Below, in pieces: positions 60,400-60,735 of a stretch of DNA of 64,000 nt. Within the stretch, counting starts at the first letter, position 1. Each line of letters opens with the position of its first letter. A program made the translations under genes and the position numbers. Origin of the DNA: Escherichia coli (GTDB lineage Bacteria; Pseudomonadota; Gammaproteobacteria; Enterobacterales; Enterobacteriaceae). The notes beneath the pieces were generated by a model. The model did no database searches, had not been told where the DNA came from, and saw nothing but the letters and a program-made list of their open reading frames with translations. The DNA lies in the NCBI RefSeq assembly GCF_003334815.1, contig NZ_QOWO01000021.1. One strand, given 5' to 3'.

Positions 60400-60428
60400 C
60401 AAGGCCCGCTCTGCGGGTCTTTTTTTCG
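60400..60428 (+). terminator. Intrinsic terminator after fbaA
   Basis: ggcccgctctgcgggtcttttttt. Confidence 0.7.
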
Positions 60429-60440
60429 CCAAAAGCAAAA

Positions 60441-60545
60441 TTGCCTGATGCGCTACGCTTATCAGGCCTACACGTATCCTGCAATATATTGAATTTGCAG
60501 GTTTTTGTAGGCCGGATAAGGCGTTCACGCCGCATCCGGCATGAC
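60441..60545. repeat. REP/BIME elements downstream of fbaA
   Basis: gcctgatgcgctacgcttatcaggcctac and ggataaggcgttcacgccgcatccggca. Confidence 0.8.
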
Positions 60546-60735
60546 AAAGCGCACATTGATATCTGTCTGAGCCCCGCTCTGCGGGGATTTTTTCGCCAAA
60601 AGCAAGGTGATTCAGATGAGAAATCTGTGATCTATTTGGCAAAATTATGCTTTATTGTTTACCCTTGTCAGACTGCCCGTCATAAGGCGGCGGAGTGTAT
60701 TTCTCCATTTTGAGTCAGTTGAAAAGGAATATTGA

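Follow-up and report, generated by a model that had tools for sequence, protein, structure and literature searches.

The fbaA-mscS spacer of Escherichia coli raises the question of why a short terminator-like module is present there twice, on one strand, with REP palindromes between the copies. The initial annotation of this DNA, a stretch of 64,000 nucleotides referred to here as the window, read the arrangement downstream of fbaA as a probable REP-associated duplication that would also be present in reference strains, and held that identity to K-12 would make it an ordinary feature. The answer we favor, with a probability of roughly 0.8, is that a BIME-1 element occupies the spacer between two direct copies of a terminator module, with the origin, function and dynamics proposed below. 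The spacer is bounded as follows.

59299-60378, + strand: fbaA, class II fructose-bisphosphate aldolase, the last gene of the epd-pgk-fbaA unit (RefSeq annotation of the identical sequence and ORF end)
60606-60735, + strand: mscS upstream region, which directly follows the last repeat copy in every allele
60736-61596, + strand: mscS, small-conductance mechanosensitive channel (ORF and annotation)

Positions 60340-60760 align to K-12 MG1655 (NC_000913.3) without any difference, and 60300-60800 is 100% identical to the K-12 and BL21(DE3) records. The region is therefore an ordinary reference feature, as had been anticipated, although the NC_000913.3 annotation lists no repeat feature in the fbaA-mscS spacer. 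The locus is in this sense already known, both as K-12 reference sequence and as a member of the BIME-1 repeat family, which was described in the early 1990s.

Two direct copies of a terminator module

The repeated module and the intrinsic terminators that it contains are located as follows.

60402-60438, + strand: direct repeat copy 1, 37 nt, hairpin AGGCCCGCTCTGCGGGTC followed by seven T and CGCCAAAAGCAA
60570-60605, + strand: direct repeat copy 2, 36 nt, AGCCCCGCTCTGCGGGGA followed by six T and CGCCAAAAGCAA
60401-60426, + strand: T1, the primary intrinsic terminator, hairpin AAGGCCCGC-TCT-GCGGGTCTT (60401-60421) with a U-tract of 7 (60420-60426)
60572-60593, + strand: T2, the second intrinsic terminator, hairpin CCCCGC-TCT-GCGGGG (60572-60586) with a U-tract of 6 (60588-60593)

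The start-to-start distance of the copies is 167-168 nt. Their local alignment scores 52, while 500 shuffles gave a mean of 13.9 and a maximum of 21, and it includes an identical stretch of 18 nt that extends beyond the hairpin. This confirms that the module occurs twice, and the coordinates first given for it (about 60405-60440 and 60570-60605) were right to within a few bases. The alignment ends at the 37/36-nt module borders. A longer repeat reaching into fbaA (families D3 and D4, with spacings of 169 and 335) was considered and rejected, as identity at these spacings resembles that of neighboring offsets and the alignment stops at 37/36 nt.

Both copies have the GC-rich hairpin and adjoining U-tract of a Rho-independent terminator. 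A terminator scan of the region returned 3 sites where 0.8 are expected, with T1 (9 pairs and T7) and T2 (6 pairs and T6) both on the + strand. The folding energy of T1 is -14.1 kcal/mol (z = -3.6), and that of T2 is -11.6 kcal/mol, which at z = -1.1 is no better than shuffles.

The element between the copies is a BIME-1

The REP palindromes reported between the copies were recovered as two inverted repeats, I1 and I2, and they belong to a composite element with the following parts.

60439-60569, strand not given: BIME-1, consisting of AATT and the Y REP, the L linker, the Z1 REP and the right outer motif
60443-60471: Y REP, part of BIME-1
60472-60506: L linker, 35 nt, part of BIME-1
60482-60494, - strand: IHF-consensus-like site ATTCAATATATTG in the L linker, one mismatch to WATCAANNNNTTR
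60507-60540: Z1 REP, part of BIME-1, with an internal palindrome
60541-60569: right outer motif ATGACAAAGCGCACATTGATATCTGTCTG, part of BIME-1

BIME-1 is defined as a single unit with a Y and a Z1 REP and a conserved long linker, often with an IHF site (PMC3333891). Here, the two REPs are inverted, with arms at 60458-60472 and 60506-60520 that are 93% complementary, and both align to the consensus of other BIME-1 copies, outer motif included. The L-linker core CTGCAATATATTGAATTT is common to about 35 other enterobacterial BIME-1 loci, which were collected by scanning metagenome contigs for this core. The element is present as one unit in the window and in K-12, unlike BIME-2 arrays, and it is extragenic at the 3' end of a transcription unit, starting 61 nt past the fbaA stop and upstream of mscS. 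Judged by sequence, the element is a BIME-1, since all of the sequence-level defining features are present. IHF binding is reported for the family, with the site in the L linker (PMC3333891), and the BIME-1 DNA presumably binds IHF here as well. By count, matches to the IHF motif (69, with 65.6 expected) are not significant alone, and only the position inside the L linker makes the motif informative.

The BIME-1 loci share a left outer motif (..TGAGAnTGnTGACAAACGCAAAAyTGCC) and a right outer motif (..GCATGAACAAAGCGCACTTTGTCAACAATCTGAG). Because such outer motifs are shared among loci, 60541-60569 belongs to BIME-1 although it looks locus-specific. On the left side, the 20 nt after the T1 hairpin stand where the left outer motif would be, so that, compared with other BIME-1 copies, this motif (..TGAGAnTGnTGACAAACGCAA) is replaced by the T-run and CGCCAAAAGCAA. 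The module tail CGCCAAAAGCAA(A) (60427-60438 and 60594-60605) nevertheless matches the inner left outer motif GACAAACGCAA(A) at 10/12 positions and has the same placement relative to the Y REP. This resemblance could be an insertion microhomology or a footprint of the element, and it is unexplained by a simple picture in which a native target was duplicated.

An Rfam match to the ES036 family at 60464-60506 (47.3 bits, gathering score 37.6) made the ES036 (CssrF) sRNA gene a candidate, which we rejected. ES036 lies at K-12 740211-740253 and the locus studied here at about 3,070,000, and no ES transcripts are listed at K-12 3.0699-3.0701 Mb. The match therefore marks the dispersed BIME-1 linker repeat and not the ES036 gene.

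RNA 3' ends at both terminators

Term-seq data from MG1655 (Adams et al., 2021, supplementary file 1; PMC7815308) place RNA 3' ends in both U-tracts in vivo, which establishes 3' ends and not termination as such.

60424, fifth U of T1 (K-12 3070119, - strand): 3' end at OD 0.4 in LB, 160,555 reads, classed as primary for fbaA
60425, T1 U-tract (K-12 3070118, - strand): 3' end at OD 2.0 in LB, 54,607 reads, classed as primary for fbaA
60593, last U of T2 (K-12 3069950, - strand): 3' end at OD 2.0 in LB, 44,902 reads, classed as orphan

The T2 end appears in one of the three Term-seq conditions, OD 2.0 in LB, and not in the other two. No promoter-like site on the + strand was found between T1 and T2, and RNA ending at T2 is therefore most simply T1 read-through. 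In the function that we propose, T1 would end most epd-pgk-fbaA transcripts, while polymerases passing it would transcribe BIME-1 and then stop at T2. The BIME-1 RNA would form a very stable hairpin (-51.6 kcal/mol, z = -5.0), and the stop at T2 would insulate mscS from a very highly expressed glycolytic operon.

Among the Escherichia sampled, the T1 hairpin is near-invariant, with one loop and one stem variant. In E. coli, T2 differs from T1 by a paired change in the stem, from G.U to C-G, by which a stem of 6 bp is restored. T2 is weaker in E. albertii (-9.3 kcal/mol), and E. whittamii has lost the hairpin (-3.4 kcal/mol), with the T-run and tail next to its decayed remnant intact. Since T2 is not universally maintained, any back-up role that it may have is dispensable.

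There is some chance, though we consider it the less probable outcome, that T2 is a functionless passenger, that the end in its U-tract is a decay intermediate from 3' exonucleases stalling on rare read-through RNA, and that mscS is unaffected. The restriction of the T2 end to one condition and its orphan class would agree with this, as would a fold no better than that of shuffles, the degeneration in E. whittamii and the absence of T2 from a third of strains. However, the position of the 3' end coincides exactly with the final U of the hairpin and U6 motif, its reads are close to the T1 count in the same sample, and the compensatory double change restores pairing in the E. coli stem. The T2 end could also be a trimmed or processed end guarded by the hairpin and not the termination point. 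Collectively, we regard T1 as the main terminator and T2 as a real yet dispensable second stop shielding the mscS upstream region; we infer any effect of T2 on mscS itself.

Copy number of the 167-bp unit

BIME-1 and one copy of the repeat together form a unit that varies between strains.

60439-60605, 167 bp: variable unit, BIME-1 and one repeat copy, missing from about 31% of E. coli genomes, present twice in SW070917 and Escherichia sp. E1V33

In a set of 5,426 complete E. coli genomes, 3,720 (about 69%) have the full length with two terminators, and approximately 1,700 (about 31%) lack exactly 167 bp and have one terminator and no BIME, giving a spacer of 190 nt compared with 357 in the long allele. 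Every short allele runs from the T1 hairpin and T7 into CGCCAAAAGCAA-GGTGAT, with neither BIME-1 nor copy 2, and this junction is kept even where the neighboring long allele has a diverged T1 tail. The module is present once, and once only, whenever BIME-1 is missing from an allele. Duplication and REP-containing element thus go together, which supports the initial annotation on its central point. That reading can now be refined, since the element can be assigned to BIME-1, RNA 3' ends are found at both copies in vivo, and the unit is polymorphic, with 1-3 copies.

At least one E. coli genome, SW070917, carries three terminators, as a synthetic T1-BIME-T2-BIME-T2 sequence aligns to it in a single block of 668 nt with 100% identity. 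Escherichia sp. E1V33 also has three, together with two BIME-1 units, at a repeat period of 168. The third terminator of E1V33, which adjoins mscS, has a T1-type stem, and this suggests gene conversion among the copies.

The distribution outside E. coli was obtained by scanning species-representative genomes with the fbaA 3' end as query (80 loci). E. albertii, E. whittamii and Escherichia sp. MOD1-EC7003 carry the long allele with unchanged junctions on both sides (..AAGCAA/AATTGCCTGATG and ..CTGTCTGAG/hairpin), and two other Escherichia representatives have the short allele. These junctions are also those of E1V33, and they extend to cryptic clades. In Enterobacter, Klebsiella, Raoultella and Pseudescherichia, the spacer lacks a BIME and holds a single terminator. 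In a neighbor-joining tree of 13 sequences, built from 2.1 kb of flanking fbaA and mscS sequence, short alleles take at least three positions. S56 (short) differs from long haplotypes by 1 SNP in the 2.1 kb, SWHEFF68 (short) is sister to a long allele, and N64 and an O2:K1:H7 strain form a separate group. From their positions in this tree, the short alleles look like repeated secondary losses nested among long haplotypes. By parsimony, and in a recombining species, the most economical history would be one ancient insertion at the level of the genus followed by repeated precise loss of 167 bp and occasional gain.

In the mechanism we propose, BIME-1 would have arrived in the ancestor of the genus Escherichia and duplicated the target hairpin region on insertion. 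After such an event, fbaA would keep a terminator at its native distance (T1), and the mscS upstream region would keep its native left neighbor (T2). The two direct repeats would then make the 167-bp unit unstable. Unequal recombination or slippage, or transposase-type excision of like geometry, would remove the unit and leave the T1 hairpin joined to the T2 tail, and gain of the unit would give T-BIME-T-BIME-T. The copy-number pattern is observed directly, and we infer the mechanism of loss and gain: two direct repeats with 18 nt of identity would allow unequal exchange or slippage to explain both.

Loss of the unit may instead reflect excision by a RAYT (TnpA-REP) transposase at the 3' side of each flanking hairpin, and not RecA recombination or slippage, an idea that we regard as unlikely but not negligible. 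The geometry fits REPIN excision in Pseudomonas, which removes the sequence between two palindromes and leaves one (PMC3337134), and the loss is always precise. However, the flanking hairpins here are locus-specific terminators and not REPs, the shared 18-nt stretch suffices for slippage, and unit gain, as in the three-copy alleles, is expected from unequal exchange rather than from excision.

A further reading reverses the direction of change, with the short allele ancestral in E. coli and the long allele an insertion polymorphism that spread by homologous recombination among lineages and species. The short allele is exactly the expected empty target site, it dominates the more divergent haplotypes (98.0-98.4% identity to K-12), and one terminator is the state in other genera. 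That isolates differ in whether they have a given BIME-1 is also known, according to the passage of PMC1187871 that refers to Bachellier et al. (1997). The same paper reports that 71% of BIME-1 length lies in strain-specific loops (PMC1187871). Nevertheless, identical long-allele junctions are found in four other Escherichia species or clades, S56 and SWHEFF68 lie as close to long haplotypes as described above, and the three-copy allele shows that the repeats recombine, and we therefore find an ancestral short allele rather improbable and retain insertion in the ancestor of the genus with later losses.

That the two modules are independent terminators, alike through chance or convergence, is already refuted: GC-rich hairpins with T-runs are common in such spacers, but neither the alignment score, with its 18 identical bases past the hairpin, nor the short alleles, in which copy 2 and BIME-1 are present or absent together, can be reconciled with it.

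Hairpins flanking BIME-1 at other loci

The flanks of BIME-1 were compared at 16 other unique loci (among L095-L214). The ends of each element were set by alignment to the consensus outer motifs, and the 45 nt outside the left end were compared with the 45 nt outside the right end. Direct repeats in the flanks exceeded the 99th percentile of permuted left/right pairs at 5 of the 16 loci, with about 0.16 expected, and the 95th percentile at 6, and several more loci had degenerate versions. Where the repeat is clear, BIME-1 is bracketed by two copies of a complete GC-rich hairpin that is specific to the locus. The left copy abuts the left outer motif, and the right copy comes after ..CAATCTGAG and is followed by the native tail.

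Filled and empty alleles are available for two further loci in addition to fbaA-mscS, and in all three the direct repeat is present on both sides of the element and in one copy when the site is empty. At metE-ysgA (L110:1350-1700 compared with L215), the empty E. coli allele has a single hairpin, CCGGGTGGTAATACCACCCGG, followed by TCTTTTCTC, and in the filled allele BIME-1 stands between two hairpins, with TTTTTCTC after the second. At mog-satP (L217 and L106 compared with L218), the empty allele has a single hairpin, and the filled allele, found in 467 E. coli genomes and one related species, has a hairpin, BIME-1 and a degenerate second hairpin. The chbG-katE spacer was considered as a fourth pair and set aside, its BIME-less allele being a sequence replacement and hence uninformative. 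At the locus downstream of fruA, K-12 diverges past query position 238.

The duplication at fbaA-mscS runs through the T-run and 12 further bases, and both copies therefore remain terminators. Flanking duplications at other BIME-1 loci are shorter, at about 16-20 nt compared with 36-37 nt here, and it is this greater length that lets both hairpin copies keep a U-tract. An inverted (palindrome-extension) origin of the duplications was considered, since the hairpins are self-complementary, and was rejected for fbaA-mscS, where the T-run and tail are repeated directly, and for metE-ysgA, where the loops match in direct orientation.

The duplication might arise if an extruded target hairpin were broken, with a stagger, at its base, or if the template were switched in replication. 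DDE-type target duplications are short and of fixed length. The duplications around BIME-1 have no such fixed, short, element-specific length but span about 16-37 nt, and duplications that vary in length with the hairpin would not fit the fixed stagger of a DDE-type enzyme. REP-associated transposases belong to the IS200/IS605 type, and transposition of this type is described as producing no larger duplication of the target (PMC2817692). No known REP/RAYT mechanism predicts a hairpin-sized duplication of 19 to 37 bp on insertion.

Tentatively, and with more doubt than confidence, we suggest that duplication of the whole local terminator hairpin, over 16-37 nt as set by the hairpin, is a general and undescribed footprint of BIME-1 insertion in Escherichia. 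A literature search found no report of local terminator hairpin duplication around BIME-1; key older BIME work was outside the scope of the search, and we do not claim newness.

Relation to known systems

The element shares with BIME-1, also called RIP or RIB, the inverted Y and Z1 REPs, the linker of about 35 nt with an IHF-like site, the outer motif, the extragenic position at a 3' end and the presence or absence among strains (PMC3333891, PMC1187871). It differs from other members in the replaced left outer motif and the longer flanking duplication described above. REPINs, which are REP doublets mobilized by RAYTs, have the same inverted doublet and spacer, and their excision leaves a single palindrome (PMC3337134). 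In contrast, the palindromes that remain here are local terminator hairpins outside the element and not REPs.

MITEs with target-site duplications are similar in being short and non-coding, with terminal inverted repeats, flanking direct repeats and a one-copy empty site. However, the duplication around BIME-1 is of unfixed length (about 16-37 nt) and tracks the size of the local hairpin, and due to this variable length, BIME-1 should not be classed as a classical DDE-type MITE.

Tandem (fail-safe) terminators such as rrnB T1-T2 likewise have two serial hairpin and U-tract signals on one strand, downstream of a highly expressed unit, with both signals giving 3' ends. Unlike these, T1 and T2 of fbaA are paralogues that arose by duplication, a repeat element lies within the 167 nt that separate them, and many strains can dispense with T2. 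As in minisatellite or VNTR loci, copy number is variable, and the fixed flanks enclose 0, 1 or 2 of the 167-168-bp units, but the unit is a dispersed mobile-type element with a terminator copy and not a simple tandem array, and its range is small.

Other features of the spacer and its surroundings

Within the mscS upstream region, the block 60626-60667 (TGTGATCTATTTGGCAAAATTATGCTTTATTGTTTACCCTTG) is conserved across Enterobacteriaceae. It is kept in Enterobacter, Klebsiella and Raoultella, where the remaining spacer is not, and is probably the mscS promoter or a regulator site. The spacer also has a perfect 10-nt inverted repeat, ATATTCCTTT and AAAGGAATAT, at 60380-60389 and 60723-60732, which pairs the first bases after the fbaA stop with the ribosome-binding region of mscS; about 0.17 such repeats are expected by chance, which makes this a weak observation.

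Further variation among strains was seen around these genes. Some E. coli (Eco_23-3511 at 2712-3911; ES5 and C325) have a gene for a TRAP-transporter substrate-binding protein between mscS and argO, and the annotated mscS of E. coli with this insert is 876 nt instead of 861. APEC-O117H42 has an IS1-like element inside the pgk-fbaA-mscS-argO stretch (NZ_CP172331.1, 828219-832496).

The pgk-fbaA spacer (59085-59298) also has two Term-seq ends, the primary end of pgk at K-12 3071427 and an orphan end at 3071314 (about 59116 and 59229). The sequence around the orphan end, CCCCAGGAGCTTACATAAGTAAGTGACTGGGGTGAG, is found again at K-12 127845, and is therefore another dispersed repeat. A weak Rfam match to V_AS5 at 59145-59264 (38.9 bits, gathering score 96) overlaps this repeat. 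Elsewhere in the window, Rfam matches that reach the gathering score are the STnc490 Hfq-binding RNA at 5361-5484 (+, 140.6 bits), a tRNA at 20104-20176 (-) and naRNA4, a REP/BIME-derived family, at 32008-32078 (+, 60.9 bits).

Implications

The locus itself matters little, and the signature in the flanks is a modest lead on the mobility of BIME-1. Whereas K-12 has two working 3' ends for fbaA, about a third of E. coli have a single one, and 3'-UTR and read-through annotations of fbaA and mscS are strain dependent as a consequence. The 167-bp unit is in addition a small and clean copy-number marker. If duplication of the local hairpin is general, BIME-1 would target extruded or single-stranded terminator hairpins and integrate by structure-defined staggered breaks or by template switching, and fbaA-mscS would be one instance in which the flanking repeats later drive precise loss or amplification. 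Should the signature be genome-wide and previously unreported, hairpin flanks would constrain how REP and BIME elements move.
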